64,000 nt of DNA, taken from positions 64,001-128,000 of the forward strand of contig NZ_JAQNDL010000002.1 of assembly GCF_028368995.1 (NCBI RefSeq). The letters run 5' to 3'. A program made the translations under genes and the position numbers. Each line of letters begins with the position of its first letter. Position 1 is the stretch's first letter. The stretch comes from Nannocystis bainbridge. Its GTDB lineage: Bacteria; Myxococcota_A; Polyangia; Nannocystales; Nannocystaceae. A model generated the notes under the pieces. That model made no database searches and was not told the origin of the DNA. It was given only the letters and a program-made list of their open reading frames with translations. Shown here piece by piece: positions 5,879-62,431 of the stretch.

Positions 5879-5944
5879 GGGCATGTCCGTACGGACATGC
5901 CTTTTAGAGCATGTCTCTCCGGGCATGTCCGCGGGGACATGCCC
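5879..5944. repeat. 14-bp-period RRRCATGYYY array, 5 units
   Basis: CATG at 5882, 5896, 5910, 5924, 5938; between convergent genes. Confidence 0.9.
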
Positions 5945-5950
5945 CGGAGG

Positions 5951-6772
5951 TCAGCCGACCGGGGCGTTGGCGATCCGGTGGACCAGCCAGAACAGGTTGG
6001 GGCCGTGGCGGTCGGGCAGCTCGCGGCGGACCGCGCGGAGGCTGTCGCACAGGGTCTCGAGGCCGCGGTCGAGGACGGAGGCGCGGCGGGCCTCGAGGCG
6101 CTGACCGACGCCGATCGGCTGCCAGCTGGTGCCCCACGGGATCGCCCACGTCAGGACGCGGTCGCCTGCGCGCAGGGCCTGCGACAGGTTGCTGTCGGTG
6201 AGCGCGACCGGCTCGTCGCGCAGGAGGTCCTTGCCGCGCACGCGCTGCTTGCCGGGGTTCACGTCGTCGACGGTGACCAGCAGCAGTCGCGCCTGCAGGC
6301 AGGCGTCGAGGGCGGCGCGCTGGCGGCCGTCGAGCGGCAGGCCGGCGCTGGCGAACATGTCGACCAGGCGGATGCCCTTGGGGTCGCGGTAGCCGTAGAG
6401 GCAGAAGGTCTGGGCGGCCCGGCGCAGGTCGGCGTTGTTCTTCTCGGCCGGGGTGGCGGCGCCGAAGAAGCCGTTCATCACCTGGGTGACGAACGGGCCG
6501 AAGCGACGGGTGGCGAAGCTGCCGAGCATCGTCTCGACGCGCTCGAAGTCGCCGCGCTCGTAGCGGCCGAACTTCGGGGTGAGCGGCCGCTCGCTCGTCA
6601 GCGGCGCCGCGGGAGCGGGGTTGCGCGCGCGCGCGTCCACCTGCGCCTGCGCGAGCTCCTGCTCGGAGGTGAGGAACGGGCCGGTGCCGCGACGCTTGCG
6701 CCGCGAGTCCGAGCGAGTTGCGGCCGCGGCGGGCGGCTCCGGGGTGCCGGGTTGTTCGGGTGTGTCGGTCAT
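5951..6772 (-). CDS. hypothetical protein (C-terminal half resembles the beta-rich domain of SEC-C-associated proteins)
   Basis: ATG overlaps the upstream stop; pattern VDDVNPG..RGKDLL..EP.....LS..L..GD. Confidence 0.65.
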   Translation of the reverse strand: MTDTPEQPGTPEPPAAAATRSDSRRKRRGTGPFLTSEQELAQAQVDARARNPAPAAPLTSERPLTPKFGRYERGDFERVETMLGSFATRRFGPFVTQVMNGFFGAATPAEKNNADLRRAAQTFCLYGYRDPKGIRLVDMFASAGLPLDGRQRAALDACLQARLLLVTVDDVNPGKQRVRGKDLLRDEPVALTDSNLSQALRAGDRVLTWAIPWGTSWQPIGVGQRLEARRASVLDRGLETLCDSLRAVRRELPDRHGPNLFWLVHRIANAPVG

Positions 6773-11866: not shown

Positions 11867-13141
11867 ATGAAGCGGACCCTGCTCGGAACTTCTTTCTTCG
11901 CCACCCTCCTGCTCGCCACCTCGTTCTACGCGGGCAAACAGCCGGCTCTGGCCAACGCGGCTCCGGCCGCGGGCTCCGAGGTCGACCTCGGCGGCGGGTT
12001 CACGCTGCTGCGTCTCGCGGTCCCGGCCGACGGCCGCATCGGCGACATCCTGCGCAAGAACGCGTTGATCTCGAGCGGCTTCGAGGTCATCGACCGCCGC
12101 AGCATCCCGGCCGCGCTGATCAAGGCCAACGACTTCGACCAGAAGGGCTGGCAGGACATCGGCGCCCAGGCCGTCATCCTCGCCGACGAGGTCGGCGGTC
12201 AGTTCAAGTTCCGCCTGTTCGACATGGGCGCCGGCGGCAAGCCGGTGCTGTCGCGCGGCTACGCGGCCAACGACCCGCTCAAGGCCGCCAACCGGTTCAT
12301 GAACGACGTCATCGAGCACTACACCAAGATCCCGGGTGTGTTCGGCTCGCGCATCGCGTTCGTCCGCACCAACCGGACGCCGACGGTGACCAAGAACGTG
12401 TTCACGATCGAGATGAACGGCGAGTCGCCGGCCTCGATCACCAACAACCGCTCGCTCAACATCTCGCCGTCGATCGGGCCGGGCGGGCAGGTGCTCTTCA
12501 CCTCCTACGCCAAGCGCAACCCCGACCTGTGGATGAGCTCGGGCGGCTCGCTGAGCCGGATCAGCACCCAGCGCGGCCTCAACCTCGGCGGCGTGATGAG
12601 CCCCGACGGCTCGAGCATCGCCCTGACGCTGTCGAAGGACGGCAACTCCGAGATCTACCTCATCGACACCGGCGGCACGATCAAGGCCCGCCTGACCAAC
12701 AACGCGGCGATCGACGGCTCGCCGACGTGGAGCCCGGGCTCGAACCAGCTCGCGTTCGTGTCGAGCCGCTCGGGCGGCCCGCAGGTGTTCCGCATGGGCT
12801 CCAACGGCGCCGGCGCGGCCCGCCTGACCAAGCAGGGCACCTACAACCAGACGCCCGACTGGAACCCCGGCCAGGGCGCGCGCGGCAACCTCGTCGCCTA
12901 CGCCGGCCGCGACAACTCCAACCGCTACGACATCTTCGCCATCGACGTCGGCAGCGGCAAGCTGTCCCGCCTGACCCAGAACCCGGGCCGCAACCTCGAC
13001 CCGAGCTGGTCGCCCGACGGCCGCATGATCGCCTTCCAGTCGACCGTCGGCGGCATCGTCGTCGCCAACGACAAGGGCAACAACCAGCAGGTCATCGCCA
13101 AGGCCGGCACCACGCCCGACTGGGGCCCGCGCAGCGAGTAG
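11867..13141 (+). CDS. tolB: TolB (PD40 beta-propeller)
   Basis: SRIAFV, SPDGSSIALTLSKDGNSEIY, PTWSP, PSWSPDG repeats; signal peptide. Confidence 0.88.
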   Translation: MKRTLLGTSFFATLLLATSFYAGKQPALANAAPAAGSEVDLGGGFTLLRLAVPADGRIGDILRKNALISSGFEVIDRRSIPAALIKANDFDQKGWQDIGAQAVILADEVGGQFKFRLFDMGAGGKPVLSRGYAANDPLKAANRFMNDVIEHYTKIPGVFGSRIAFVRTNRTPTVTKNVFTIEMNGESPASITNNRSLNISPSIGPGGQVLFTSYAKRNPDLWMSSGGSLSRISTQRGLNLGGVMSPDGSSIALTLSKDGNSEIYLIDTGGTIKARLTNNAAIDGSPTWSPGSNQLAFVSSRSGGPQVFRMGSNGAGAARLTKQGTYNQTPDWNPGQGARGNLVAYAGRDNSNRYDIFAIDVGSGKLSRLTQNPGRNLDPSWSPDGRMIAFQSTVGGIVVANDKGNNQQVIAKAGTTPDWGPRSE

Positions 13142-13153
13142 GTCCTTCGGGAC

Positions 13154-14104
13154 ATGTCCCAACAGTCAGGTGAGCCTGCGACGCCGCGCGCCGCGGATCC
13201 GCGAGGATCCTGGCGCGCGGTCATTGATATCGGGACCAACAGCGTCCTGCTGCTGATCGCGCGCTGGCACGGCGACGACCTCGAGATCGCGCTCGACCAG
13301 GCGACGATCACCCGCCTCGGCAAGGGCGTGGCCGCGTCGGGAGTGCTGGCGCCCGAGTCGATCGCGCGCACGCTCGCGGTGCTGAAGCAGTACCGCGAGA
13401 CGGCGGAGCGCCATGGGGCGACGCCGCTGGCCGTGACGACCGAGGGCGTGCGCCTGGCCAGCAACCGCGACGATTTCCTGACGCCCGCGGCCGCGGTGCT
13501 CGGGGCGCCGGTGCGGCTGCTCAGCGGCGCGGAGGAGGCCGAGCTGTCATACCGCTCGGTGGCGCAAGAGCTGGGCCCGACGACGGCGCTGCGCGTGCTC
13601 GACATCGGCGGCGGCTCGACCGAGCTGGCCGTCGGCGAGGGCGAGCGGCTGATCTCGTCGGTGTCGCACCCGATCGGCGCGGTGCGACTGTTCGAGCGGT
13701 TCGTGACCCAGGATCCGCCGGCGCCGAGCGAGGTGGCGCAGATCGAAAAAACGGCCCTGGAGACGCTGCAGCGCGGGCAGCCGCTCGATCCGGAGCCCGT
13801 GCTCACCGGCCTCGCGGGCACGGTCACGACCGCGGCGGCGATGCTGCTGGGGCTGACGCAGTACGACCGCGAGCAGGTCGACGGCTCGACCTTCACGATC
13901 GATCAGGTCCGCGACCTCCGCGATCGCGCGGCCCGGGTGACCGTCGCCGAGCGCTGCCAGATCTGGCCCACGCTCGAGCCTGCGCGCGCCGACGTGATCG
14001 TCGCCGGCATGACGATCCTGCTGGCGGCGATGCAGCACTGCGGGGCCACCAGCCTGGCGGTGCGCGACCGCGGGCTGCGTTACGCGCTGATCGAGAGGGA
14101 ATGA
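13154..14104 (+). CDS. ppx: Ppx/GppA family exopolyphosphatase (short form)
   Basis: IDIGTNS, SGAEEA, DIGGGSTE, RADVIVAG, GLR. Confidence 0.9.
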   Translation: MSQQSGEPATPRAADPRGSWRAVIDIGTNSVLLLIARWHGDDLEIALDQATITRLGKGVAASGVLAPESIARTLAVLKQYRETAERHGATPLAVTTEGVRLASNRDDFLTPAAAVLGAPVRLLSGAEEAELSYRSVAQELGPTTALRVLDIGGGSTELAVGEGERLISSVSHPIGAVRLFERFVTQDPPAPSEVAQIEKTALETLQRGQPLDPEPVLTGLAGTVTTAAAMLLGLTQYDREQVDGSTFTIDQVRDLRDRAARVTVAERCQIWPTLEPARADVIVAGMTILLAAMQHCGATSLAVRDRGLRYALIERE

Positions 14105-14931: not shown

Positions 14932-14956
14932 GCCGGGGCGAGTGATGTGTCTGTTG

Positions 14957-15008
14957 CGACATGTGTGAAGCGCCAGGTCCGAAAGGACAGGTGCGAAGGG
15001 GCAGGTGA
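14957..15008. repeat. 14-bp-period array, 4 units
   Basis: CATG/CAGG at 14960, 14974, 14988, 15002. Confidence 0.8.
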
Positions 15009-16624
15009 GCGTGGACGCGGGGACCGGCGAGACCGAGGCGGAGCGGCGGGGCGACGAGCGGCCGGTGCTGCTGCGCGTCGAGGGGCTGGCGATCGCGCGG
15101 CCCGACGGCTCGCCGCTGGTCGAGGCGCTGACGCTGACGCTGCGCGCCGGCGAGACGGTGGCGGTGTTCGGGGCTAGCGGGGCCGGCAAGTCGACGCTGA
15201 TGGCGGCGCTGCACGACGCCGAGGGGCTGCGGGCGCGCGGCTTCGCGGTCCGTGCGGCCGCGTTCACGACGGCCGGCGCGGTCGGGATCGTGCCGCAGCG
15301 AGGGGCGCTGCTCGACCACCTCAGCGCGGCCGGTAACATCGCCCTGGCGCTGCGCAACGCCGACAAGCCGACGGCGGCCAGCGCGGCGGCGGTCGAGCGC
15401 TGGATCGCCGCGCTCGATCTGCCGCGGCGCTGGAGCGGGGGCGGGCAGGCGGTGGCGCACGTCAGCGGCGGCGAGGCGCAGCGGCTGGCGGTCGCGCGCA
15501 CGCTGGCGGGCGGGCGCCAGATCTTGCTGCTCGACGAGCCGTCGGTCGGGCTCGATCCGCTGCGCGTCGATCGGCTGGCGGCGGCGCTGCGCGGCCAGAT
15601 CGCTGGCCAGGGCGCGGCCGCGCTGGCGATCACCCACGACCTCGAATTCGCGGCGGGCTTCGCCGATCGCTTCCTCTACCTCGACCCGGCCGCGGGCCAG
15701 CTGGTCGAGCTGCCGATCGCCCGCGGCGAGTCGCCGGCGGCGACGGTCGCGGCGCTGGGGGCGGCGCTGCGCGAGCGCATGGCCCGAGAGACAGGTCATG
15801 CGGGCGGGGGCGCGCGCCGGCGCCTGGGGCCGCGGCTGCGAGCTGTCCTTCGGGACATGCTCGCTCCGTTCGCGGTGCTGGCCCGGGCGCTGGTGGCTGC
15901 CCCGGCGGCGCTGGTCCGGCCGCGCGATTTCTTCGAGGTGGCGCGGGTGACGTTCGCCCAGGGCCTGTGGCGGCCGCTCCTGTTCATCGCCGCGGTGTCG
16001 CTGCTGGTCGGGTTCACGCTGCTCTACATCTTCCACCGCGCGTTCTCGGGCGGCGGGGTGCCGGTGCGGCCGGACAAGATCTTCGCGCTGATCGGGTCGA
16101 TGCACGTGCTCGCGCTGGCGCCCCCGCTGTCGGGCATCCTGTTCGCGGCGACCTCGGGCAGCGCGGTCGCGGCCTGGCTCGGCGGGATGTCGCTGACGCG
16201 CCAGACGGCGGCGCTGCGCGGGCTCGGGATCGCCGAGGCGCGCTACCTGTGGCTGCCTGCGGTGCTCGGGCTGGCGCTGGCGTACGTGGTGCTGGCGGCG
16301 GTGTTCACCGGCGGGATGGTGCTCGGCGGGCTGCTCTACTTGAAGGTCCAGGTGCCGGCGCTCGCCGATCCGTGGGCCGTCGTCACCGCGGACTTGCTCG
16401 ATCCCCCGGCCGCGCGGGCGCCGTTCCGCGCGCGCGCGCTCGTGCTGGTCGCGCTGTACGCGGGCGGGATCGCGGCCGACGCGGTGGCGAAGGGGGCCAG
16501 CGACAAGGCCAGCGCAGACGCGGTGACGGCGGCGATGGTCCGCAGCGTGATGGCCTGTACGCTGTGGATCGTGGCGCTCGAGCTGGCGTCGCTGGTGGTG
16601 CTGTATGGCGCTCGCGGTGGATAA
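15005..16624 (+). CDS. ABC ATPase fused to MlaE-like permease
   Basis: GASGAGKS, VSGGEAQR, LLLDEP, THD; C-terminal APPLSGILFAATSGSAVAAWLGGM..TRQ..ALRGLGI (MlaE EAA-like). Confidence 0.82.
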   Translation: MSVDAGTGETEAERRGDERPVLLRVEGLAIARPDGSPLVEALTLTLRAGETVAVFGASGAGKSTLMAALHDAEGLRARGFAVRAAAFTTAGAVGIVPQRGALLDHLSAAGNIALALRNADKPTAASAAAVERWIAALDLPRRWSGGGQAVAHVSGGEAQRLAVARTLAGGRQILLLDEPSVGLDPLRVDRLAAALRGQIAGQGAAALAITHDLEFAAGFADRFLYLDPAAGQLVELPIARGESPAATVAALGAALRERMARETGHAGGGARRRLGPRLRAVLRDMLAPFAVLARALVAAPAALVRPRDFFEVARVTFAQGLWRPLLFIAAVSLLVGFTLLYIFHRAFSGGGVPVRPDKIFALIGSMHVLALAPPLSGILFAATSGSAVAAWLGGMSLTRQTAALRGLGIAEARYLWLPAVLGLALAYVVLAAVFTGGMVLGGLLYLKVQVPALADPWAVVTADLLDPPAARAPFRARALVLVALYAGGIAADAVAKGASDKASADAVTAAMVRSVMACTLWIVALELASLVVLYGARGG

Positions 16625-18326
16625 TTGGCGACTCGCGTCGATGGCCGGTCTGGCCGGGCTGGTGCTGGCGGGCGCGCTGCTGGCCGCCGGGCGCGGGGCG
16701 CTGATCGAGGCGGCGGCGATCGAGCCGTTCCGCGTCGAGGTGGCGTCGGCCCACGCGCCGGCCGCGGACGGGCGCTGGTCGGGGCGGGTGGTGCCGCCCG
16801 AGCTGACGGCGCGGACGGTCGTGCGCGTCGACGGGCAAGTCATCGATGATGCTTCTGGACATGTGCGAGAGGACATGTCCGATGGGACATTATCGGTCGC
16901 GCTGGGTGACGCGCCGGGGCTGCGGCTGATCGAGGTCGAGCTGCCGCGGCAGGGCGGCGCCGAGGTGGCGACCGACGCGGCGCTGATCGGGCCGTTCCGC
17001 GAGCGCTGGGGCGAGGGGCCGGAGTGTGGGGCGGGGGTGCGGGTCGCGGCGGCGGCGATCGATCGTCTGGTGCTGCCGCCGCTGCGGGCGAAGCTGCTGG
17101 CGGCGGCGCCGTCGATCGGGCTGCTCGGGCCGGCGACGACGATCGAGGAGGCGAGCGTGACGCTGCTCGGCGACGCGCTGTTCTTCCGGGTGGCGCTCGC
17201 GGGGGAGCACCGCATCGCGGTGGCAGGCAAGCTCGAGGTGCGGGTGGCCGGGTCGCGTCAGCTCGGCGTGCGGCTGGCTTCGCTCGGGCCGGTCGAGTTC
17301 TCCGGCACGCTGCGCACGCGGGCGACGCTCGGGGCCGCGGCGCTCGGGGCGGCCATCACCGGCCCGCTGGCGCCGCTCGGAGCGCTCGCCGGCTACGCGC
17401 TGGCGGACGGCTACATCGATCGGCGGGCGCGCCAGGAGGTCGAGACGCAGCTGACGGCGGCCCTGGCGGTGGCCAGCGCGATCCCGCTGATCCCGGAGCG
17501 CGCCGAGCTGATCGTCGGCGAGCCGCGCTCACGGGCGACGCTGGCGTTCTGCGCGGTGGCGATCGAGGCGGGCGGGATCGCGGCGCACCTGTCCGTTCGG
17601 CCAGATCGGCCGGAGCCGCGGACCGGCGAGGAGGCGGGCCGGGTGCGCACGCGCCTGGCGGCGATCCCGGGGCCGGCGCGGCACGGGCTGTCGCTGCCGC
17701 CGCTGCGGCCGGTGGCGCCGACGGCCGACGCGGAGGTCGAGCTCAGCCTCGACACGGTCGACGCGCTGCTCGACGCGTGGACGGCCAACGGGCTGCTCGG
17801 CGAATTGATGGGGCGGGCCCAGTGGGTCGAGCGGGTCGACGAGGAGCTGGGCGAGTGGACGACGCTCGGGCTGGAAGGCATCGAGGTGCGGCTGCCGCCG
17901 TCCCTGTCTCCGGGGACAGGTGACGGCTGGGCCCTGACGATCGCGGGGCTGCGGCTCGATCTGACGGGCAGCGAGGGCGACGATCCCGGCGAGGTGCTGG
18001 TGGCAGGGCGCGGGCTGGTGCGCCCGCACTACGACGGCGCGCGCGGGCGCATCGCCCTGGCGGGGACGATCGACCGCCTGCGCCTGTCCTGCGCCCGCGC
18101 GGGGGCGCTGTGGCCGTGCTTCGCGGCGCTGCTCGAGCTGGGCGACGTCGAGGCGAGGCTCGACGCGCTGCTGGCCCCGGGCGCGGCCGGGCTGCCGGGG
18201 ATCGACGTGCGGACGCTGCTGCGCGACGGGACGCAGGCGCTGCGCGAGGGCGGGCTGGAGCTGGCCGACCTGACGATCAGCTACCCGGCGCACGGGGTGC
18301 TGCGGGTGGCCGCCGAGGTGCGCTGA
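16605..18326 (+). CDS. hypothetical membrane-anchored protein, possible BPI/TULIP-like fold
   Basis: Overlaps the upstream gene; N-terminal TM; ELSLDTVDALLDAWTANGLL motif. Confidence 0.65.
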   Translation: MALAVDNWRLASMAGLAGLVLAGALLAAGRGALIEAAAIEPFRVEVASAHAPAADGRWSGRVVPPELTARTVVRVDGQVIDDASGHVREDMSDGTLSVALGDAPGLRLIEVELPRQGGAEVATDAALIGPFRERWGEGPECGAGVRVAAAAIDRLVLPPLRAKLLAAAPSIGLLGPATTIEEASVTLLGDALFFRVALAGEHRIAVAGKLEVRVAGSRQLGVRLASLGPVEFSGTLRTRATLGAAALGAAITGPLAPLGALAGYALADGYIDRRARQEVETQLTAALAVASAIPLIPERAELIVGEPRSRATLAFCAVAIEAGGIAAHLSVRPDRPEPRTGEEAGRVRTRLAAIPGPARHGLSLPPLRPVAPTADAEVELSLDTVDALLDAWTANGLLGELMGRAQWVERVDEELGEWTTLGLEGIEVRLPPSLSPGTGDGWALTIAGLRLDLTGSEGDDPGEVLVAGRGLVRPHYDGARGRIALAGTIDRLRLSCARAGALWPCFAALLELGDVEARLDALLAPGAAGLPGIDVRTLLRDGTQALREGGLELADLTISYPAHGVLRVAAEVR

Positions 18327-18388: not shown

Positions 18389-18482
18389 AGACATGGTCGA
18401 GACGACATGTCAAAGAGGACATGTCGAATGGCGCATGTTCATCGGGGCATGTCGCCAAGGACATGGCCCTCCAGACAGGCCG
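18389..18482. repeat. 14-bp-period array, 7 units
   Basis: CATG at 18392, 18406, 18420, 18434, 18448, 18462 and CAGG at 18476; between convergent genes. Confidence 0.92.
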
Positions 18483-18848
18483 TCAGTCTTGCTTGCGTGG
18501 GTCCTTGCGGTCGAAGCGCTCGCGGGCGCGGGCGATCTCGCCGCGGTGGCCGTCGGCCCAGGCGGCGAGCGCCTGCACCGGGTCGAGCAGGGTGCGGCCG
18601 AGGTCGGTCAGGTCGTAGTCGACGCGCGGGGGGTTCGTCGGGGTCACTGTCCGCGTCACCAGGCCGTCGCGCTCGAGGCCGCGGAGCGTCAGGGTCAGCA
18701 TTCGCTGCGAGATGCCGTCGATGGTCCGCCGCAGCTCGCTGAAGCGCAGCGGTCGGTCGCTCAACATGCTGACGACGAGCACGCTCCACTTGTCGCCGAC
18801 GCGGCTGAGGACGTCGCGCACCGCCAGGCAGGTCTCGTGCTGATGCAT
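18483..18848 (-). CDS. HxlR family winged-helix regulator
   Basis: [47 protein letters not shown]; start 18848 or 18872. Confidence 0.92.
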
Positions 18849-46508: not shown

Positions 46509-46588
46509 GGACATGTCGCTCGGGGCATGTCCTTGAGGGCATGTCTCTTTGGAAATGTTTTAATGCGCATGTCCTGAAGGACATGCGC
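46509..46588. repeat. 14-bp-period array, 6 units
   Basis: CATG at 46512, 46526, 46540, (AATG 46554), 46568, 46582; between convergent genes. Confidence 0.9.
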
Positions 46589-46608
46589 ATGCTCGGTGTG
46601 TCCGGGGG

Positions 46609-47958: not shown

Positions 47959-48057
47959 GTTGGCCTTTCGGCGAGTGAGTGCCGCGGGGGCCGGGGTCCC
48001 GTTCGCCGATTTTTCGCGGCGTTCGCGGCGCTGTTCGCGGGGGCGCTAGCGAGTGGT

Positions 48058-48170
48058 TCGAGCTGTCCCGGAGGACAGATCAAAGGGGCGCTTGGGTCGC
48101 GCTGTCCTTTAGGACAGATCGAAGGGGCGCTTGAATCGAGCTGTCCCTGAGGACAGATCGAAGGGGCGCG
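48058..48170. repeat. 39-bp tandem repeat, three copies, each with CTGTCC-N4-GGACAG
   Basis: Units start at 48058, 48097, 48136. Confidence 0.88.
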
Positions 48171-48201: not shown

Positions 48202-49632
48202 TCAGGAGCGGCACAGGGCGCTGACGCGGGCGGCCAGGGCGGAGCCGGGCCAGCGGGCGACGAAGGCGGCGGCCTCGCGGCGGGCGCGATCAGCCTCGCC
48301 GAGGCGGCAACGCGCCTCGACGGCGGCGGCGGCGGCCTCCTGGACGAAAACACCGGTGGGGAAGCGCTGCTGGTGACGGGCGGCGAGGTCGAGGGCGGCG
48401 CGGTCGTCGGCGGCGAGCAAGGCGGCGCGCAGCGACTCGACGAGGGCGAGCTCGGCGGCCAGCGAGGGACCTTCGGCGGGTGGCGCAGCGGCGATGAGGG
48501 CGTGAGGCTCGGAGGTCGAAGCGGCTCGTGCGGGCACGGCGGCGAGGGAGGGACCGTCGGCGGGCGTAGCGGCGGCGAGGGCGTGAAGGTCGGAGGTCGG
48601 AGCGAGCTTGACGGACGGCGAGGGTTCGTCGGCGGGCGTAGCGGCGGCGAGGGCGTGAGGGGCGGAGGCCGGAGCGAGCTCGGAGGTCGGCGAGGGGTCG
48701 TCGGTTCGTGCCGACGAGGTGGCGGCGAGGAGGGCCTCGAGGGTGGACGGGGTCGGAGCCTTGAGGGCCGGACCGTCGGCTCGCGCGGGGGTTTGCAGCG
48801 ACGCGTGGGCCGAGGTGACGGGCGGCTCGGGTGGGGCGGCGCGGCCGAAGGCGAGCACGGCGGCGAGGCCGACGCCGGCGAGCGAGAGGCCGACGATCGG
48901 GCTGCTGCCGGCGGCGACGACGGGGACGATCGGGCCGCCGCCGGCGAGGGTGGTGGGAGCGGCTACATGGTCGATCGACCATGTCCTTGAGAGCATGTCC
49001 GATACGACATGTCCGTCGCGCGCGGCGGTGAGCTGCCACGGCGGAGCCTCCGGGGGGCCGACGACGACCAGGGCGGCGAGCACCTGGGAGCCGTGCCGCG
49101 GGCGGTGCCGGCGGTCGCGGGCGTCGAGGCGGCGGACCATGCGATCGAGCTCGCGGCGAGCGGCGCGCAGGCGCGAGTAGACGGTGTTGAGGTTGACGCC
49201 GAGCTCGGCGGCGATCTCGGGCGCCTGCCACTGCTCGAGCTCGGTCATGACGAAGACGACGGCCTGGTCGCGGTCGAGGCCGCCCAGGAAGCCCTGGAGG
49301 ATCGCGGCGGCTTCGGCCTGCTCGACCGGGGCCTCGGCGGCCGGGGTGACGCGCTCGGCCTCGTCGAGCGAGCAGCGTCGCGGTTGCTCGCGCGCGGCGC
49401 TGCGGCGGTAGCTGCTGGCGATCCGTCGCGCGATCTCGAACAGCCAGGTGCGCAGGGTGGCCCGGCCGGCGAACTCGGGCAGGCGGCGGTAGACGACCAG
49501 GAAGGCGTCCTGGACGGCGTCGTCGATCCGGGCCGGATCGACGCCCAGGCTCCGGATGGTGCGCCAGACGAAGCCGTGGTGGGCCCGGTAGACGGCGGCG
49601 AAGTCGGGGGGCGCTTCGAGGGAGAGCGGCAC
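48202..49632 (-). CDS. ECF sigma factor fused to a TM segment, repeat linker and TPR-like C-terminal domain
   Basis: DDAVQDAFL, RTWLFEIARR, EIAAELGVNLNTVYSRLRAAR; tail ELALVE...HQQRFPTG...WPGS. Confidence 0.85.
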   Translation of the reverse strand: MPLSLEAPPDFAAVYRAHHGFVWRTIRSLGVDPARIDDAVQDAFLVVYRRLPEFAGRATLRTWLFEIARRIASSYRRSAAREQPRRCSLDEAERVTPAAEAPVEQAEAAAILQGFLGGLDRDQAVVFVMTELEQWQAPEIAAELGVNLNTVYSRLRAARRELDRMVRRLDARDRRHRPRHGSQVLAALVVVGPPEAPPWQLTAARDGHVVSDMLSRTWSIDHVAAPTTLAGGGPIVPVVAAGSSPIVGLSLAGVGLAAVLAFGRAAPPEPPVTSAHASLQTPARADGPALKAPTPSTLEALLAATSSARTDDPSPTSELAPASAPHALAAATPADEPSPSVKLAPTSDLHALAAATPADGPSLAAVPARAASTSEPHALIAAAPPAEGPSLAAELALVESLRAALLAADDRAALDLAARHQQRFPTGVFVQEAAAAAVEARCRLGEADRARREAAAFVARWPGSALAARVSALCRS

Positions 49633-49653: not shown

Positions 49654-51015
49654 TCAGCGGTTCCGTGGCCCGAATTGCAGGTCGAGGCCGAAACCGATGC
49701 GCAGTCCCGCACGCCCGCTGCGGTACACCAGCTCGTCGGCGTGCACGGTGAAGCCCGGGCGGTTGACGGCGAGCAGGCCCTCGACGGACAGCCACAGGCC
49801 GACCGGGCCGCTGGCGCGCCAGCGCAGCGCGGGGCCGAGGGAGAAGCCGGCCCACGGGGCCCACCGCGGGTTGGGAGCGCTGACGGCGAGGGCGACGCCG
49901 CGGATCGCCCCGACCTCGGCGCCGGCGCACAGGAGGAAGGCGAGGGCCGGACGCGGGTGCCAGGTCGGACAGACCCGGATGACGGCGCCGAGGCGGTCGA
50001 AGCGGCCGCCGGCGCTGTCGCCCTGGACCGGGAGGATCCGCAGGGGCGTACCGACGATGCCGGCTTCGAGGCGGAGGCGCGGCAGGCTGACGCCGCCGAA
50101 CAGGCCGGCGAAGCCACCGGTGGTCGGGAGGACGCCGGCGTCGAGGCCGCCCTCGAGCCGGAGGTGGCCGAGCACGCGCGGGGTCGCGGCGGGGGCCGGA
50201 GGCCGGCGGGCGGCGGTGATTTCGGCTGTCTCTTCGAACAGGTCGTCGGAGCCGAGCGGGGGCGAGCGCGGGGCGACCGGCGGGCGAGGTGCGAGGAGGG
50301 GCGGGGTGAGCGAGCGAGCGGAGGGATCGGGCGCAGGGATCCCGGGGGACGGGTCGGGCGGCAGGACGGGCGGGGAGGATGTCCCTGGGGACATGTCACT
50401 CGGCGGCGGGGACGGGGAGGTCGAGGATGTCCCCGGGGACATGTCACTCGAGAGCGGTGGGTCGTTCGCGGAGGTCGAGGATGTCCTCGGGGACAGGTCG
50501 TCGGGCAGCGAGGATCGGTCGCCGGGGGAGGTCGAGGATGGCCTCGGGGACAGGTCGGGTGACGCGGCGGCGGATGGCCTCGGGGACAGGTCGGGTGACG
50601 CGGCGGAGGATGTCCTCGGGGACAGGTCGGCGGGCAGGCGGCGGCTGACGGACAGCGGGTCGAGGTGGATGGCGATCAGGAGGGCGGTGGCGCGCGCGAG
50701 GTCCTGGCAGCTCTCGGCGTGGATGGTGCGGCGGTAGTCGGCGCCGCGCCCTTGCCCGCGCGACACGAGTCGCAGCTGCCAGCGGGCGCCCGTGCGGGTG
50801 ACGACGGCGCGGGCGACGGCGCGGGCGGGCACGGCGTCGCCGGTCGGCTGGCGCAACAGCGCGCCGACCATGTCGACGACGGCGACGGCGGGCGGGCACT
50901 CGCGGGGGGCCTGCCAGTCGAGGTCGACCGGCGGCGCGGCGAACGAGAGGCGAGCGAACACCAGCGCGGGGAGGGCGAGCAAGCGAGGTCCTGAGCTCCG
51001 GCATCGTCGCCGCAC
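49654..51015 (-). CDS. exported hypothetical protein with repeat linker and beta-barrel-like C-terminus
   Basis: Signal peptide, W.APRECP...SC domain, DLSPR repeats, amphipathic beta-strands ending GLDLQF; start uncertain. Confidence 0.7.
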   Translation of the reverse strand: MRRRCRSSGPRLLALPALVFARLSFAAPPVDLDWQAPRECPPAVAVVDMVGALLRQPTGDAVPARAVARAVVTRTGARWQLRLVSRGQGRGADYRRTIHAESCQDLARATALLIAIHLDPLSVSRRLPADLSPRTSSAASPDLSPRPSAAASPDLSPRPSSTSPGDRSSLPDDLSPRTSSTSANDPPLSSDMSPGTSSTSPSPPPSDMSPGTSSPPVLPPDPSPGIPAPDPSARSLTPPLLAPRPPVAPRSPPLGSDDLFEETAEITAARRPPAPAATPRVLGHLRLEGGLDAGVLPTTGGFAGLFGGVSLPRLRLEAGIVGTPLRILPVQGDSAGGRFDRLGAVIRVCPTWHPRPALAFLLCAGAEVGAIRGVALAVSAPNPRWAPWAGFSLGPALRWRASGPVGLWLSVEGLLAVNRPGFTVHADELVYRSGRAGLRIGFGLDLQFGPRNR

Positions 51016-52752: not shown

Positions 52753-52790
52753 GGACATGGTGAAAGGGCCATGTCCTCGAGGTCATGTCG
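52753..52790. repeat. 14-bp-period array, 3 units
   Basis: CATG at 52756, 52770, 52784. Confidence 0.75.
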
Positions 52791-52825
52791 CACCTCGGCT
52801 CGGGCGGAGCACGGGGTAGGCGGAA

Positions 52826-55855: not shown

Positions 55856-55921
55856 AGACATGCTCGATGGGGCATGTCTGTCGGGACATGAACGATGGGG
55901 CATGTCGAAGAGGACATGCCC
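55856..55921. repeat. 14-bp-period array, 5 units
   Basis: CATG at 55859, 55873, 55887, 55901, 55915; between convergent genes. Confidence 0.9.
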
Positions 55922-55925
55922 GAGG

Positions 55926-56714: not shown

Positions 56715-56786
56715 GCGGGGGACGGCGGGAAGAGCGGGCTAGACGAGCGGAGGAGGGGACCGGAGGGCAAGGCGAGAAGGAGATCG

Positions 56787-56893
56787 TAACAGGTCTGAAG
56801 GACAGGTCTAAAGGGACAGGCTCGATCGGACAGGTTCGAAAGCACAGGTCCCGAGGGTCAGGTCCGAACGGACAGGTCCGATGGGTCAGGTGG
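56787..56893. repeat. 14-bp-period array, 8 units (CAGG variant)
   Basis: CAGG at 56790, 56803, 56817, 56831, 56845, 56859, 56873, 56887; overlaps the 3' end of the ATPase. Confidence 0.9.
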
Positions 56894-57664: not shown

Positions 57665-57980
57665 GCGGCGGACGCTAACACAGGCGCGGACGCGCTGCGC
57701 GGGCGCTGGGGCTTCGAGGCCGCGGCCCGGGCGGAGGGAGCGAAGACCGACGGTGAGGTCGAGGTCGGTCGCTGCGGGGGCTCCGAGGTTGCGCGAGATG
57801 CACGACGTGGGGTTCGGGGGTGCTTCGCTAGCGACCTGTCTCGAGGGACAGCTCGATCGAGCGCTCGCGTCCGATCGAGCGCCGCGTGACGAGGGGCCGG
57901 GCGCGTGAGACTGTGACCGTCGGGCGGCGCGCGGACGCCCTGCGGAGGACGGGGCCCGCGACGGGGCAGGAAGTTGGCGG

Positions 57981-59899: not shown

Positions 59900-61516
59900 G
59901 TGACGGACGATGGGGCCGACGATGTCCTCGGATCGCTGCTGGAGGGCCGCTATCGAGTGCTGCGGCGGCTCGGGGGCGCGGGGGTGGGCAGCGTGTTCGT
60001 CGGCGAGGACGAGGTGCTGCGCCGGCGCTGCGCGCTCAAGCTGCTGCACCCGGCGCTGGCCGCCGACGCAGAACGAGCGGCGCGGTTCCTGCGTGAGGCG
60101 CAGACGATCGCGGCGCTCGATCACCCGAACATCGTCGACATCCATTCGTACGGCCAGGACCCGCGCGGCACCGTCTACTTCGTGATGGAGCTGCTCGCGG
60201 GCGAGGACCTCGATGCGCGCCTGCGCGACCGCGCGGCCAGGCCGGTCACGGTGCGCGACGCGTGCCGGTGGGGCCTGCAGATCGCCGCGGCGATGGCGGT
60301 GGTCCACGAGGCCGGGTTCGTGCACCGCGACCTCGAGGCGTCGAACGTGTTCCTGGCCCGCCGCCGCGACGGCAAGCAGGTGTGCAAGCTGCTCGATTTC
60401 GGCATCGCCCGCGCGGTCGAGCGCTCGGAGCTGACGCGCGCGGGGGTGCGGCTGGGGACGCCGGGCTCGATGTCGCCGGAGCAGATCCGCGGCGAGCAGC
60501 TCGACGGTCGCAGCGACGTGTACGCGTTCGGGGTGCTGCTGTTCAAGCTGCTGACCGGGCGGCTGCCGTTCGCCGGGGATGCGCTGGCCGTGGCGCATCA
60601 GCACTGCGAGGCGCCGGCGCCGGCCCCGTCGTCGCTGGCGCCGACGGCGAACATCTCGCCGCGGCTGGACGCGCTGGTCCTCAAGGCCATGGCCAAGCGG
60701 CCGGCCGATCGGTTTGCGACGATGTCGGCGGTGGCGGCGGCGCTGTGCGTCGTGCTGGACGCGCCGGCCCTCGAGTCGACGGTGCGCGGGGTGGTGCCGG
60801 ACGTGATGGCGGAGATGACGCTGCGCGCGGGGGTGCCGGAGCCGGCGGCGCCACGGGAGATCCGTGGGCGCACCGCGGCGACGGCGTCGATGCGCGTGCC
60901 GACGCCGCGCGGGGTGCAAGGGCTCGGGCTGGCGTTCACGGCGCTGCTGGCGGCGACTTCGCTGGCGGTGCTGCGCGCGAGCGGCGGTGCGGGCGTCGGG
61001 GGCGCGGCGCTCGGGCCGGCGCCGGCCGAGGCTGTTCCTCTGGACCTGTCGCATGGGACGACCGCGGCTTGGGGTGATGCTGTCCCGGGGGACAGGTCGC
61101 GCGGGGCGGCGAGGGGTGATGCTGTCCCGGGGGACAGGTCACGCGAGGCGGGGACCGGAGCGTCGCCTGTCCCGGGGCACAGGTCGACGAAGGTGGCGGC
61201 TGCGCCTGTCCCGGCGGACATGCCCGAGCCGGAGGTCGAGCTGCCGCCGCTCGAGGACGAGTTCGCCGGCGCGCGCGCGAGGCAGCGGGCGGACCGGATC
61301 TTGCGCCGGCTGGAGGCCGAGGCGAGGCGTTGCCGGCAGGTCCACGGCGCGGTCGACGGGCCCGAGATCGAGGTCGACTATACGGTCGGTCCGAACGGGG
61401 CGGTGACGGCGGCGACGGCGGCGACGAGGGACGCGCTCGGGGCGTGTCTGGCGGCGGCGGTGCGACGGACCCGGTTCGCGCCGAGGGCCGCGCCCGGGCG
61501 GAAGATCTGGCTGTGA
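59900..61516 (+). CDS. paralogous transmembrane kinase, probable pseudokinase
   Basis: Same architecture as the neighbour but HRDLEASN and GTPGSMSPE. Confidence 0.85.
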   Translation: MTDDGADDVLGSLLEGRYRVLRRLGGAGVGSVFVGEDEVLRRRCALKLLHPALAADAERAARFLREAQTIAALDHPNIVDIHSYGQDPRGTVYFVMELLAGEDLDARLRDRAARPVTVRDACRWGLQIAAAMAVVHEAGFVHRDLEASNVFLARRRDGKQVCKLLDFGIARAVERSELTRAGVRLGTPGSMSPEQIRGEQLDGRSDVYAFGVLLFKLLTGRLPFAGDALAVAHQHCEAPAPAPSSLAPTANISPRLDALVLKAMAKRPADRFATMSAVAAALCVVLDAPALESTVRGVVPDVMAEMTLRAGVPEPAAPREIRGRTAATASMRVPTPRGVQGLGLAFTALLAATSLAVLRASGGAGVGGAALGPAPAEAVPLDLSHGTTAAWGDAVPGDRSRGAARGDAVPGDRSREAGTGASPVPGHRSTKVAAAPVPADMPEPEVELPPLEDEFAGARARQRADRILRRLEAEARRCRQVHGAVDGPEIEVDYTVGPNGAVTAATAATRDALGACLAAAVRRTRFAPRAAPGRKIWL

Positions 61517-61681
61517 GCCCGGGCCGATCGAGCGCGCTGCCGACGAGAGACCGTCTCGGGGATCGGGTCGTGGGTGACCCGCGGGACCGCCTCGGTCCGC
61601 TCGAGCGCCGCACGCTGCTGCGCCTGCAAGCGTCGCAGAACGAGCGCTGCGCCTCCTGAGCCCGCTCGAGCGGCGCGGGCG

Positions 61682-62431
61682 CTAGGCTCGCCGGCTGCGG
61701 GGCTTGCGGGTGCGGGCGGGCTTGGCCGGGAGGGCCGGGGGCGGCTCGGGTTCGGGCGCCGATTCGCCTGTCTCTGCGGGCATGTCCGTGAGGACCTGTG
61801 CTTCGGGACCGGTCGCTTCGGACATGCCCTCGGCGTCACCCGGGTCGAGGCCGCCGCTGCGGAGGGTGCGGGGCGGCAGCAGCTCGGGCTCGCTGACGAC
61901 CTTCTTGGCCAGGAAGATGGCGGCGTCGATCTGGGAGAAGCTGCGGGCGCGGTAGAACTGGAGCGCGCGCCGGTTGTTGGCGGCGACCTCGAGCACGAGG
62001 TGGGTGCAGCCGCGGACGCGGGCGAGGTGCTCTAACTGCTCGATGACGAAGCTGCCGATCCCGCGGCCCTGGAAGTCGGGGTGGATGGCGATCTCCTCGA
62101 CGAACAGCGGGCGCATGTCGCGGCTCTCGAAGTAGCGCTCGTTGATCCAATTGTCGGAGCCGATGACCTCGTAGGCGCACTCGGCGTAGCCGACGATCAC
62201 AGGGGCTTCGCCCTCGTGGATCTCGAACAGCAGCTGCTCGATGCCCTCCTCCTCGTAGATCTCGAGGAAGCGGGTCTTGGTGCGGGGGCGCTGGTATTCG
62301 ACGGTCTCGCGGTTGACCGAGCGGAACACGCGCTTGAGGAACTCCCACACCTTGTTGAGGTCGCGGCGGTGGATCCGGCGGACACGGATGGTCGGCTCCG
62401 TGACGGCGAGCGCGGGCTTGCGAGAGGCCAC
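61682..62431 (-). CDS. GNAT acetyltransferase
   Basis: IAIHPDFQGRGIG, LEV...NRRALQFY; TAGACT 6 bp before the GTG. Confidence 0.88.
   Translation of the reverse strand: MASRKPALAVTEPTIRVRRIHRRDLNKVWEFLKRVFRSVNRETVEYQRPRTKTRFLEIYEEEGIEQLLFEIHEGEAPVIVGYAECAYEVIGSDNWINERYFESRDMRPLFVEEIAIHPDFQGRGIGSFVIEQLEHLARVRGCTHLVLEVAANNRRALQFYRARSFSQIDAAIFLAKKVVSEPELLPPRTLRSGGLDPGDAEGMSEATGPEAQVLTDMPAETGESAPEPEPPPALPAKPARTRKPRSRRA

Follow-up and report, generated by a model that had tools for sequence, protein, structure and literature searches.

A 14-bp interrupted palindrome, TGTCC-N4-GGACA, forms phased arrays past gene ends in Nannocystis

The phased repeats of the window (the 64-kb stretch of DNA analyzed here) and of the 11-Mb genome are built from one elementary element, the 14-bp interrupted palindrome TGTCC-N4-GGACA, in which two fixed 5-bp arms enclose four free, rather A+T-rich bases at an exact spacing. 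The element is found singly, both in gaps and in ORF interiors, and as head-to-tail runs, and it appears to be undescribed. We propose, with a probability of roughly 0.45, that the runs are REP/BIME-like transcript-end hairpin arrays and that their fixed sequence implies a specific factor.

Exact copies of TGTCC-N4-GGACA number 1,987 in the genome, versus 0 to 16 for each of the other spacings from N0 to N10. With up to one mismatch there are 6,245 copies (~6,200), versus 98 to 322 for other spacings, and over-representation of the element relative to other spacings exceeds 100-fold. The 4-bp spacing is thus essentially absolute, in support of the nearly invariant phasing of the preliminary description. 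The unit defined there, a 10-bp palindrome plus a 4-bp spacer, is shifted by one register relative to the element found as single copies. Its GGACATGTCC/CATG core is the joint of two adjoining TGTCC-N4-GGACA elements. A single unit spans 14 bp (5+4+5), and two joined units make a 24-bp dyad.

CATG-CATG pairs in the window lie 14, 28, and 42 bp apart in 26, 18, and 14 cases, versus 0 to 4 at other lags. The genome holds 3,736, 2,073, and 1,586 pairs at these lags, with ~80 expected at lag 14; lags 13 and 16 give 72 and 79. CATG steps of 13 and 15 bp show no surplus over the genomic background (72 and 262 versus about 80 and 280). A PWM caller found 2,185 arrays of at least three units and 1,178 of at least four units in the genome, versus 65 and 7 in locally shuffled DNA. 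The lag-14 excess, which the preliminary description had named as a check, is present in the CATG pairs relative to other lags and in the array counts relative to shuffled DNA. Arrays of 3, 4, 5, 6, and 7 units number 1,007, 430, 331, 246, and 127, with no preference for even unit numbers in these genome-wide counts, and steps within arrays are 14 bp in 4,773 cases, 13 bp in 123, and 15 bp in 75. The unit is nearly symmetric, and its weak polarity alternates 1.15- to 1.35-fold above expectation. End units have more degenerate outer halves (1.72 and 1.52 mismatches versus 1.03).

Within the window, the PWM caller found 12 arrays of at least three units (Table 1). All eight intergenic arrays named in the preliminary description were found in place; its unit counts held at 5879, 14957 (called at 14943 here), 18389, 46509, 52753, and 55856 and were one too high at 41361 (5, not 6) and 56787 (7, not 8), and the single 13-bp step in the 56787 array was seen again. 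Further arrays lie at 16857 (3 units), 44809 (4), 48963 (4), and 61764 (5). The loci that had been listed as pairs at 13139, 15842, 17903, 19657, 42631, 43923, 48062, 51101, 55345, 57835, and 61031 proved to be genuine inverted pairs of CTGTCC-N4-GGACAG type.

Table 1. Arrays, pairs, and lone copies of the element in the window, with their surroundings
Position	Feature	Context
5879..5948	5-unit array	Convergent genes; ends 2 nt short of the minus-strand gene's stop at 5951
13136..13163	Two-unit pair	Short gap separating two plus-strand genes
14943..14998	4-unit array, two CATG-type and two CAGG-type	12 nt past the stop of a PHP-domain gene; adjoins the next start
15839..15866	Inverted pair, exact TGTCC-N4-GGACA at 15844	Within an ABC/MlaE ORF, between two Pfam domains
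16857..16898	3-unit array	Expanded in G010 and G007, where it forms two blocks
17903..17920	Lone hairpin element CTGTCT-CCGG-GGACAG	Within an ORF
18389..18486	7-unit array	Fills a convergent gap; abuts the stop of an HxlR gene; fold z -4.4 and -4.3
19676..19689	Exact TGTCC-N4-GGACA	Within a HipA-like ORF, where the HipA_C domain starts
41361..41430	5-unit array	Begins on the stop codon of a phosphorylase-family gene; fold z -7.1
42655..42668	Exact lone element	Within an ORF
43925..43938	Exact lone element	Within an SNF2-helicase ORF
44809..44864	Degenerate 4-unit array	Within an SNF2-helicase ORF; near-identical in G010 and G007
46509..46592	6-unit array	Convergent gap; fold z -5.8
48054..48169	39-bp repeat in three copies, one CTGTCC-N4-GGACAG per copy	
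48963..49018	4-unit array	Long open frame after sigma-70 domains; coding score low there
50375..50633	Four two-unit pairs on 54-57-bp repeats	Within a predicted ORF of low coding score
51101..51118	Lone hairpin element CCTGTCT-CTCG-GGACAGG	Intergenic gap
52753..52794	3-unit array	Past the stop of an aldo/keto-reductase gene
55856..55925	5-unit array	Fills the HxlR/permease convergent gap; fold z -4.9 and -4.1
56787..56883	7-unit array, every core CAGG (non-palindromic)	Within an ABC-transporter operon, ATPase then permease
57835..57851	Lone hairpin element CCTGTCT-CGAG-GGACAG	
61028..61229	Pairs and exact lone elements (61081, 61123, 61207)	C-terminal part of a Ser/Thr-kinase ORF
61764..61833	5-unit array, CATG and CCTG cores mixed	Fold z -3.2

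Arrays of at least four units start at a median of 15 nt (tandem gaps) or 18 nt (convergent gaps) past the stop codon, and their median distance to the next start is 175 nt. By gap type, arrays of at least three units number 680 in 1,397 convergent gaps, 712 in 4,109 tandem gaps, and 140 in 1,421 divergent gaps. An element lies within 120 nt past the stop in 27% of genes, versus within 120 nt ahead of the start in 8%. All of these positions depend on gene calls from our own crude GC3-based caller, whose starts are imprecise. Element-free gaps of 50 to 250 nt (samples of 120 for each type) had median folding z scores of -1.87 when convergent, -0.13 when divergent, and -0.16 when tandem, with 48%, 7%, and 15% of them below -2. 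The 16 element-free convergent gaps that we viewed held mostly unique G+C-rich hairpins. The arrays occupy the same niche as these ordinary hairpins.

CATG arrays gave folding z scores of -3.2 to -8.7 in 9 of 10 folds; the two strands of the array at 5879 scored -7.5 and -8.7. Cores of the CAGG or CCTG type make up 8.8% of the total in convergent gaps and 9.0% in those tandem gaps whose next start lies more than 150 nt away, a share that rises to 28.6% where the next start of a tandem gap is within 60 nt (Fisher P = 1.7e-21) and to 29 to 36% within ORFs. The palindrome is spoiled in contexts that need read-through, and the operon-internal array at 56787, which has CAGG cores throughout and does not fold, follows this pattern.

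Some strand signals hint at a role at the RNA level. On the sense strand, a wobble-compatible G at position 3 (591 cases) exceeds the mirror C at position 8 (472; P = 8.7e-7), an asymmetry that could equally stem from transcription-linked mutation bias. TTCG or CGAA is found at 1,007 of 4,773 junctions, versus 284 ± 15 in column shuffles, with TTCG favored on the sense strand (188 versus 141; P = 0.011). The sense strand folds slightly better in arrays of at least five units (-1.9 kcal/mol; P = 0.04), and across all 669 tandem-context arrays the difference between sense and antisense folding was not significant (P = 0.35). Spacers had no strand skew (1,679 A and 1,701 T on the sense strand), and the edge profiles contained neither a T-rich stretch past the last unit nor an A-then-T alternation. 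Because their stems are not followed by a T-run, the arrays, although they hold hairpins, are not canonical intrinsic (Rho-independent) terminators.

In the transcript or in unwound DNA, any two neighboring arms would pair into a 5- to 10-bp stem with a 4-nt loop, making an array a hairpin stack that reads alike on both strands. Such arrays would most likely terminate or pause transcription and protect 3' ends against exonucleases, and one array would serve both genes of a convergent pair. They probably lengthen as the 14-bp element duplicates in tandem, a process that would fix the period; core variants shared along arrays, the more degenerate outer halves of end units, a perfect young satellite at C3:552675, and a 42-bp higher-order repeat at C3:1347900 fit this origin. 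Since a need for hairpins alone leaves the constant arms, the exact N4, and the conserved in-ORF copies unexplained, a sequence-specific factor or molecular drive would have to keep the word. Several results fit transcript-end hairpins poorly. Arm conservation in ORFs is not explained by them, and an exact N4 is stricter than a hairpin loop needs (1,987 copies, versus 16 for N3 and 5 for N5). The all-CAGG array at 56787 does not fold (z = -0.28) and is nevertheless kept, as CAGG type, in G010 and G007; the corresponding gap in G009 and G006 has no array. In addition, pairing between neighboring units is just 2 to 3 percentage points above that of shuffled pairs (z = 3 to 5), orientation alternates weakly, even unit numbers are not preferred, and the T-run is missing.

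REP/BIME repeats, according to excerpts of PMC3733652 and PMC2817692, are hairpin-forming sequences with hundreds to thousands of copies, located mostly past ORFs between convergent or unidirectional genes, in regularly spaced clusters and with few copies in genes; they have been proposed to terminate transcription, protect mRNA, and control supercoiling. One of them, REP325, was shown to be a partly Rho-dependent terminator and mRNA stabilizer (excerpt of preprint 10.64898/2026.03.23.713779). The element described here resembles the REP/BIME repeats of Enterobacteria, Pseudomonas, and Stenotrophomonas in copy number, hairpins, regular clusters, and post-ORF location, the last of which holds for arrays but not for single copies, 653 of 1,385 exact ones lying within predicted ORFs. 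The differences concern the unit and its partner. REP/BIME units are imperfect palindromes of 20 to 40 bp with a GTAG or CGTC tag and a cognate RAYT, whereas here the unit is 14 bp, with 5-bp arms and an exact 4-bp gap, and neither tag nor RAYT was found. REP/BIME clusters alternate head and tail, whereas our unit is two-fold symmetric without clear alternation, and in place of few genic copies we counted about 1,860 to 1,900 elements (at most one mismatch) within predicted ORFs, spread along genes. Neither tag occurs in the position matrix or the edge profiles. The RAYT search (Y1 transposase, PF01797) gave no match in G000 (three candidates scored; 90% complete) or in two other genomes of the genus; it did give matches in 6 of 14 control genomes. 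The REP-like option of the preliminary description consequently survives for array location and fails for the tag and, in G000, the RAYT gene.

No paper describing a TGTCC-N4-GGACA element was found in our literature search, and the sole Rfam match in the 64-kb window at the gathering score was a tRNA at 30671-30742. The earlier statement that no named element has this structure holds within these searches. A CRISPR array was considered and rejected: CRISPRs combine 23- to 50-bp repeats with unique spacers of similar length, whereas here the whole unit measures 14 bp, has four free bases, and gave no Rfam match. STRR-type heptamers of cyanobacteria and Xanthomonas are likewise very short units whose arrays are scattered through intergenic DNA, often in inverted blocks that converge (excerpt of PMC4692102). 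Their unit, however, is 7 nt, G-rich, and direct, with near-identical neighbors and no single in-ORF copies, whereas ours is a dyad that is diverged and present in ORFs.

Array positions persist from one species to another even as the units within the arrays turn over. In two related species that are ~10% diverged, arrays lay at the same orthologous gap in 37 of 37 comparisons, in agreement with the earlier claim that something besides recent slippage keeps the core and its phasing. No gap was filled in one species and empty in the other except for two gaps with extra sequence in the relative (one a whole ORF). G010, G007, and G003 also have the array at 55856, with units that differ. Orthologous arrays often differ in length, only three pairs being of the same length. 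Cross-species identity, in values biased by the alignment, was 0.91 to 0.94 for CATG versus 0.59 to 0.66 for spacers, which fits the claim of a kept core and free spacers; the benchmarks are 0.86 for third codon positions and 0.81 to 0.83 for other intergenic DNA. Core variants are shared along an array, the z scores for direct identity being 13 to 16 at core positions 5 and 6.

Conservation extends into ORFs. Across 25 cross-species comparisons of 19 in-ORF elements, arms were 0.948 identical versus 0.856 for flanks (Fisher P = 1.3e-4), and the motif was intact in the relative in 17 comparisons. The in-ORF copies are divided among reading frames as 375, 217, and 57, with frames that give good codons favored. 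These copies would have arisen by substitution and not by insertion, because a 14-bp insertion would break the frame. Among the options raised in the preliminary description, a binding site or a methylation or uptake mark is favored by the in-ORF copies. The survey of relatives that it had suggested found the element in all ten genomes searched of Nannocystis, a genus of soil myxobacteria, and traces of it in two sister genera, where 39 and 8 copies compare with 0 to 3 for controls; it was not found in the remaining genera searched. Near-consensus double units range from 7 to 116 in five Nannocystis genomes and from 366 to 848 in six.

An alternative that we regard as possible, if rather doubtful, is that a dimeric DNA-binding protein specific to the genus uses TGTCC-N4-GGACA as its operator, with one monomer on each 5-bp arm (arm centers 9 bp apart), and that the arrays at gene ends are platforms where it binds cooperatively and with high occupancy. 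Such platforms could be roadblock terminators, nucleoid anchors, or, between convergent genes, topological barriers or gyrase-type sites, and hairpin potential would be a by-product of two-fold symmetry. Escherichia coli BIME-2 clusters bind gyrase. The 5-4-5 geometry is that of FNR-type sites, and both met boxes and the FNR site TTGAT-N4-ATCAA are short two-fold symmetric sites with a free middle, arrayed in exact phase so that binding is cooperative. Ribbon-helix-helix and CRP/FNR-type operator arrays share this symmetry, free middle, and phase with our element, but they are few per genome and lie in promoters, whereas the element has thousands of copies and avoids promoters. An operator would account for the exact spacing, for conserved arms around a free middle, for the conserved arms of in-ORF copies, for 13- and 15-bp steps at background level, and for the retention of the non-folding CAGG array between species; the spoiled palindromes in operons and ORFs fit weakened roadblocks equally well. 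Units within an array are, moreover, approximately independent draws from one matrix (3.36 mismatches in 10, versus 3.65 for random units), in keeping with the earlier observation that adjacent units diverge, unlike those of slippage satellites. However, an operator predicts neither the sense-strand-specific signals nor the ordinary hairpins of element-free convergent gaps, and the families tried as protein candidates (Y1 transposase, D12 methyltransferase, and HxlR) do not track the element. D12 methyltransferases are present in 34 of 41 relatives irrespective of the element and are not genus specific, and the genome holds only five HxlR genes.

Molecular drive, in which biased point changes write the word in, as for HIP1 or uptake sequences, is in our view unlikely. 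Its cause would be preferential uptake and recombination of DNA with the word, methylation-linked bias, or repair bias, and the pile-up of arrays at gene ends would reflect where they are tolerated. The uptake sequences of Neisseria (DUS) and Pasteurellaceae (USS) are 9- to 12-bp words present in thousands of copies, in ORFs and gaps, within one clade, and their inverted pairs double as terminators past genes. They are not palindromes and lack a fixed-gap dyad and 14-bp-phased arrays, whereas the element here has all three; an intragenic distribution is described for them in an excerpt of PMC2346458. HIP1 (GCGATCGC) of cyanobacteria is, like our element, a short palindromic word in coding and noncoding DNA, and it is more than 15-fold over-represented and conserved beyond neutral expectation (excerpts of PMC5861425 and PMC4390886; 15- to 300-fold in the former). 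The same features recur here: at least 15-fold over-representation, presence in coding and noncoding DNA, and conservation at orthologous sites, the last from the 19 in-ORF elements in 25 comparisons. HIP1 differs in being an uninterrupted octamer without the N4 and in having cognate orphan methylases, for which our D12-class search was not discriminating (34 of 41 relatives). We know of no report that HIP1 forms phased head-to-tail arrays or is concentrated past stop codons. Drive would suit the nearly half of exact single copies that lie in predicted ORFs, necessarily by substitution, as well as the favored good-codon frames, the 17 intact motifs, and a more than 100-fold over-representation, comparable to that of HIP1, that is genus-wide with traces in two sister genera. 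It leaves unexplained the tight placement 15 to 18 nt past stops, the gradient of core types by context, and the exact-period head-to-tail arrays, and its orphan-methylase lead, the D12 family, lacks genus specificity.

It is very improbable that the element is a selfish MITE- or REP-type mobile element, spread by a putative transposase and without host function. Its high copy number, its restriction to one genus, and its unequal abundance between clades would be expected of such an element, as would arrays within ORFs, which some REPs also form (excerpt of PMC3733652). Nevertheless, array edges carry no terminal motif or target duplication, PF01797 is unmatched in the three genomes of the genus sampled, arrays keep the same gap across ~10% divergence in every comparison, and insertion cannot account for the single 14-bp copies within ORFs.

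Ordinary slippage minisatellites, or an artifact of composition or codon periodicity, might be suggested by the perfect young 13-bp satellite at C3:552675 and by the variable lengths of orthologous arrays, but this explanation, to which we give next to no weight, is refuted by the lag counts, the shuffled control (65 arrays versus 2,185), the N-spacing counts, and the presence of one word at thousands of unlinked loci in ten genomes, with diverged neighboring units and a period that is not a multiple of 3.

The preliminary description reported arrays and pairs of a short palindrome, and these proved real: all named arrays lie at their reported positions in the window, and the named pairs are inverted pairs of the form CTGTCC-N4-GGACAG. 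The window spans positions 64001 to 128000 of contig C3. Tandem Repeats Finder gave rows of period 14 and period 28 at most of the arrays. In the window, one CATG is followed by another at a lag of 14 bp 26 times, 18 times at lag 28 and 14 times at lag 42, while every other lag up to 60 gives 0 to 4 pairs. Across the genome of Nannocystis bainbridge (11.05 Mb in five contigs, 71.5% G+C), the corresponding counts are 3,736, 2,073 and 1,586, against a background of 72 at lag 13 and 79 at lag 16, with no excess over background at lags 13 or 15.

To call arrays, a position matrix was derived from phased units and its hits were chained in phase; its consensus is GGACATGTCC plus four free bases, 55% A+T. 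The genome contains 2,185 arrays of at least three units and 1,178 of at least four, compared with 65 and 7 in DNA shuffled in 100-base blocks. The nearly exceptionless 14-bp phasing noted previously holds throughout: in arrays of at least four units, steps of 14 bp occur 4,773 times, of 13 bp 123 times and of 15 bp 75 times. Neighboring units had also been described as diverged, and they differ at 3.36 of 10 core positions, compared with 3.65 of 10 for random units of different arrays. Because neighbors differ nearly as much as random units, the arrays are not young slippage satellites. A 28-bp super-period of paired units was not supported, since direct likeness exceeded inverted likeness at lags 2 and 3. 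The array observation is thus confirmed, and it is both genome-wide and genus-wide. Four soil-metagenome DNA runs over window positions 41001 to 61000 yielded short contigs of mixed relatives only and were uninformative on the arrays, and among the sequencing runs searched, none of RNA covered the region.

The unit had been read as a 10-bp palindrome with a 4-bp spacer. That reading identifies the same arrays but is half a unit out of register with TGTCC-N4-GGACA, which we take as the elementary element. With exact arms, this dyad occurs 1,987 times in the genome at a gap of four bases and 0 to 16 times at each other gap from 0 to 10; when up to one arm mismatch is allowed, there are 6,245 copies at a gap of four and 98 to 322 at gaps of 2, 3, 5, 6 and 7. 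Outside arrays of at least three units there are 1,385 exact copies, most of which stand alone without flanking CATG, often with the stem extended to 6 to 8 bp. At array ends, the outer halves of the first and last units are more degenerate (1.72 and 1.52 mismatches per 5 positions, respectively, versus 1.03 in the inner half). Given the count at a gap of four, the stand-alone copies and the degenerate outer end halves, the simplest description is a 14-bp interrupted palindrome whose head-to-tail duplication created both the CATG joint and the 14-bp period.

Units set by CATG phase alone are slightly asymmetric, with GCATGT (362) and ACATGC (452) over-represented and ACATGT (376) and GCATGC (147) under-represented (P = 9e-16). 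The spacers are weakly palindromic at most: their outer bases are complementary at a frequency of 0.314 versus 0.281 expected, and the inner ones at 0.266 versus 0.269. Array edges showed neither a terminal motif nor a target duplication. A convergent gap at 177621 to 177732 of contig C5, outside the window, contains a 38-bp repeat in three copies, based on GCGCCTGCCC-N4-GGACAGGCGC, which is a CCTG/CAGG inverted form of the dyad. The array caller missed this form, and the family counts are therefore lower bounds.

Genes were predicted with a rough caller that uses the G+C content of codon positions (7,783 genes; stop codons are exact and starts approximate). Among arrays of at least three units, overlap with predicted open reading frames (ORFs) is below 20% for 1,421 and at least 80% for 593. 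Of the intergenic ones, 680 are in convergent gaps, 712 in tandem gaps and 140 in divergent gaps; the genome has 1,397, 4,109 and 1,421 such gaps, respectively. Arrays of at least six units are overwhelmingly intergenic (367, against 25 partly in an ORF and 25 in predicted ORFs), and 560 of the 826 convergent gaps of 50 to 250 nt hold an element of at least two units. Arrays of at least four units begin a median of 15 nt (tandem) or 18 nt (convergent) past the stop codon, and the next start is a median of 175 nt away. The stop codon often falls within the first unit, with peaks for TGA at unit positions 6 to 8 and at the first bases of the unit. An element with up to one mismatch is present within 120 nt past the stop in 27% of genes and within 120 nt before the start in 8%.

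Single copies are also common inside genes. Predicted ORFs contain 653 of the exact single copies (1,385 in all), and when one mismatch is allowed, the number of copies in ORFs is about 1,860, distributed along the genes; by frame, the in-ORF single copies number 375, 217 and 57, and frames with good codons are favored. Some ORFs carry in-frame arrays, located in proline-, glutamate- and glycine-rich linkers, and one in-ORF array is in frame in five genomes; the rows of two genomes (G001 and G003) were excluded from alignment A1 for wrong orientation. The genes of the window are ordinary housekeeping genes, and no array of at least three units lies between 20 and 41 kb, a 21-kb stretch that carries ribosomal-protein, dnaB and pyrophosphatase genes.

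Other features of the window (positions are those of the window)
Position	Feature	Remark
18927-20494	hipBA-like toxin-antitoxin pair (HipA_C + Couple_hipA, HTH_3 partner)	Exact dyad at 19676, in the HipA coding region (part encoding the HipA_C domain)
30671-30742	tRNA gene	Sole Rfam match in the window
43032-43356	Complex repeat: GCGACGAA octamers in higher-order units of 70 and 94 bp	Just upstream of SNF2-helicase gene; unrelated to the dyad
48054-48169	Three copies of a 39-bp tandem repeat, one CTGTCC-N4-GGACAG hairpin each	Dyad borne on a longer repeat unit
50375-50633	Tandem repeats of 54-57 bp and 36 bp, all bearing a GAGGATGTCC-N4-GGACA(T/G)GTC pair	Within a 442-aa predicted ORF of low coding score and zero Pfam matches, which may not be a gene or may be a repeat-protein gene

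Evolution between species was followed in 200 kb of syntenic DNA from each of two related species (G010 and G007), with a coding identity to N. bainbridge of about 90% (0.93, 0.95 and 0.86 at the three codon positions). Where a gap in N. bainbridge held an array of at least three units and both flanks were anchored, an array of at least two units was also present in 20 of 20 gaps in G007 and 17 of 17 in G010. Gaps with three or more units in one species and none or one in the other were found only in the reverse direction, in two cases, where the gap of the relative has extra sequence (in one case, a whole extra ORF). Array density is similar across the compared species, at 14 to 19 per 100 kb. 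Over 117 aligned units, identity was 0.91 to 0.94 at CATG, 0.70 to 0.80 in the outer core and 0.59 to 0.66 at the free bases, values biased by an aligner that matches core to core; it was 0.81 to 0.83 in other intergenic DNA. Just three orthologous array pairs were equal in length, too few for an alignment-free rate, so that register shifts and unit turnover surely lower the spacer identity. Alignment is unambiguous for 19 single elements in ORFs, whose arms are 0.948 identical, compared with 0.856 for their 10-base flanks (Fisher P = 1.3e-4) and 0.81 for their loops; the motif was intact in the relative in 17 of 25 such comparisons. Together, gap retention and the array and in-ORF identities indicate conservation of array position and arm sequence but not of the middle bases or the unit number.

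A double unit within two mismatches of consensus occurs 848 times in N. bainbridge and 7 to 532 times in each of the genus's ten other genomes. One sister genus has two copies and 29 further relatives have none; a reversed control pattern gave one match in one relative and zero elsewhere. An exact scan of bacteria and archaea, with one genome per species, returned 78 loci, 75 of them in records whose titles name Nannocystis, Nannocystaceae or Myxococcales; the other 3 are isolated matches in unrelated records. Every genome of the genus carries the stand-alone dyad CTGTCC-N4-GGACAG, in 23 to 567 copies. Two sister genera have 39 and 8 copies, and counts elsewhere are 0 to 4 (controls, 0 to 3). 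The dyad is relatively commonest in the clade poor in CATG arrays (567 copies in the 9.1 Mb of G009, a distant member of the genus). This distribution suggests that the single dyad is the older form, shared by the whole genus, and that the phased arrays expanded later, within the large-genome clade. No peak at lags 7 to 45, as expected of short-period arrays with another core, appeared in 100 kb from each of two other genera of the family (G019 and G024). The operon-internal array at window position 56787 is not at the orthologous gap in G009 or G006; in G009 (locus L090, about 2227 to 2397), that gap has a different repeat of about 36 bp containing GCGGGTCATGCGGACTCCTGGACGCGG.

We postulate that the arrays, formed by tandem duplication of the 14-bp dyad, act as predicted hairpins at transcript ends; this is the best-supported mechanism, to which we assign a probability of roughly 0.45. 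On either strand, CATG arrays fold far more stably than their dinucleotide-shuffled versions (z = -3.2 to -8.7). In samples of 120 gaps, element-free convergent gaps also fold well (median z = -1.87, with 48% below -2), while medians were -0.13 in divergent gaps (7% below -2) and -0.16 in element-free tandem gaps (15% below -2). Most of the 16 element-free convergent gaps that we inspected hold ordinary, unique G+C-rich hairpins, and the arrays thus occupy a place taken by plain hairpins at other sites of the same genome.

The distribution of the nonpalindromic CAGG and CCTG cores is also in line with hairpins at transcript ends. Their share is 8.8% in convergent gaps and 29 to 36% in ORFs; in tandem gaps, it is 28.6% at up to 60 nt from the next start (P = 1.7e-21) versus 9.0% at more than 150 nt. 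The palindrome is thus spoiled at sites that require read-through. For example, the window array at 56787, within an ABC-transporter operon, consists entirely of CAGG units and does not fold (z = -0.28). Strand-specific signals are modest. In tandem contexts, the substitution preserving a G-U pair was counted 591 times on the sense strand versus 472 for its mirror image (P = 8.7e-7). Junctions with TTCG or CGAA are 3.5-fold enriched (1,007 versus 284 +/- 15), and TTCG is preferred on the sense strand (188 versus 141; P = 0.011). The sense strand folds 1.9 kcal/mol better in arrays of at least five units (P = 0.04), a difference that is not significant across all 669 arrays (P = 0.35), and the free bases show no strand skew.

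Several observations limit how much hairpins can explain. The complementarity of neighboring units is only 2 to 3 points above that of shuffled pairs, arrays show no preference for even unit numbers, and the stems are not followed by a U-tract. The pattern of a bidirectional terminator, A-rich spacers two steps before T-rich ones, was not detected (correlation at lag 2, -0.02). The nonfolding CAGG array is kept as an array across species. A need for hairpins alone would permit compensatory drift and loops of 3 or 5 bases. Most tellingly, the arms recur unchanged across thousands of loci, with a gap of exactly four bases, and the in-ORF copies are conserved, which calls for a sequence-reading agent as well. 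Such an agent might be a dimeric factor that binds DNA or RNA, or a drive like that suggested for HIP1 and uptake sequences.

We tentatively speculate that TGTCC-N4-GGACA is the site of a putative genus-specific dimeric factor, that selection or drive placed some 6,000 copies in ORFs and at gene ends, and that the arrays are high-avidity platforms co-opted as two-way transcription stops between convergent genes. A DNA-uptake receptor is one candidate for the factor; an orphan methylase partner and an abundant nucleoid or roadblock protein are others. The preliminary description had likewise named a DNA-binding or nucleoid protein and a methylation or uptake mark as options. If true, this would be a bacterial word system joining the properties of HIP1 and uptake sequences to those of REP/BIME. 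Less probable alternatives, though serious ones, are a platform for proteins at the DNA level and, with lower probability, sequence drive; both are compatible with the hairpin mechanism. A mobile element is argued against by the stable positions, the lack of edge motifs, the failure to find a RAYT (REP-associated tyrosine, or Y1, transposase) in the N. bainbridge genome and the in-ORF copies, which we infer arose by substitution, since a 14-bp copy in an ORF cannot be an insertion.

Among possible co-occurring genes, a D12 adenine methylase does not discriminate, being found in 34 of 41 relatives, and HxlR regulators were dropped as a lead, as the genome has only 5 HxlR genes. Both HxlR genes of the window (18486 to 18872 and 55392 to 55844) have an array directly at the 3' end. 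The core is the best p53 half-site, and the literature matches to the 10-mer are all p53 papers; the p53-like domain PF00870 had no match in the N. bainbridge genome, but a control matched nowhere either, so the search is uninformative.

The earlier suggestion of a REP-like element holds for placement and probable role, in which the arrays resemble REP/BIME clusters (PMC3733652; preprint 10.64898/2026.03.23.713779). It fails on the defining features of that class: the unit size differs, and neither the GTAG or CGTC tag nor the transposase was found. The single copies are like HIP1 in being over-represented, conserved and present in ORFs (PMC5861425, PMC4390886). The element combines extragenic palindromic repeats with a hyperabundant palindromic word. 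It is apparently undescribed, in agreement with the earlier statement that no named element has this structure: Rfam had no match to the arrays, and full-text literature on Nannocystis or myxobacterial repeats or the 10-mer contained no description, which is not proof, as most subscription journals fall outside that coverage.

How transcripts end in G+C-rich bacteria without U-tract terminators is poorly understood, as is the reason that certain lineages carry one short palindrome throughout the genome, as in REP, HIP1 and uptake sequences. Nannocystis offers a clean case, with an exact 5-4-5 dyad in about 6,000 copies, a single cultivable genus and a useful mix of single ORF copies alongside phased arrays at 27% of gene ends. 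Operon-internal, nonfolding CAGG arrays and sister genera that lack the element are natural controls, making direct tests of hairpin versus protein recognition and of function versus drive feasible. The arrays have practical value for annotating and engineering this natural-product producer: they mark the ends of transcription units and are likely to hamper PCR, cloning and assembly.

Three arrays on contig C3, outside the window, are unusual in structure. The longest (1237899 to 1238192) has 21 units, is unusually A+T-rich and lies in a 525-bp gap between two plus-strand genes. A 20-unit array at 552675 to 552942 has a perfect satellite of the 13-bp unit GGAGCATGTCCTC at its center. This satellite is a recent expansion by slippage, its period falls one base below that of the family, and it illustrates the appearance of a young one. 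An 11-unit array at 1347900 to 1348053, in a 754-aa predicted ORF, consists of three copies of a 42-bp higher-order repeat, equal to three units or 14 codons.
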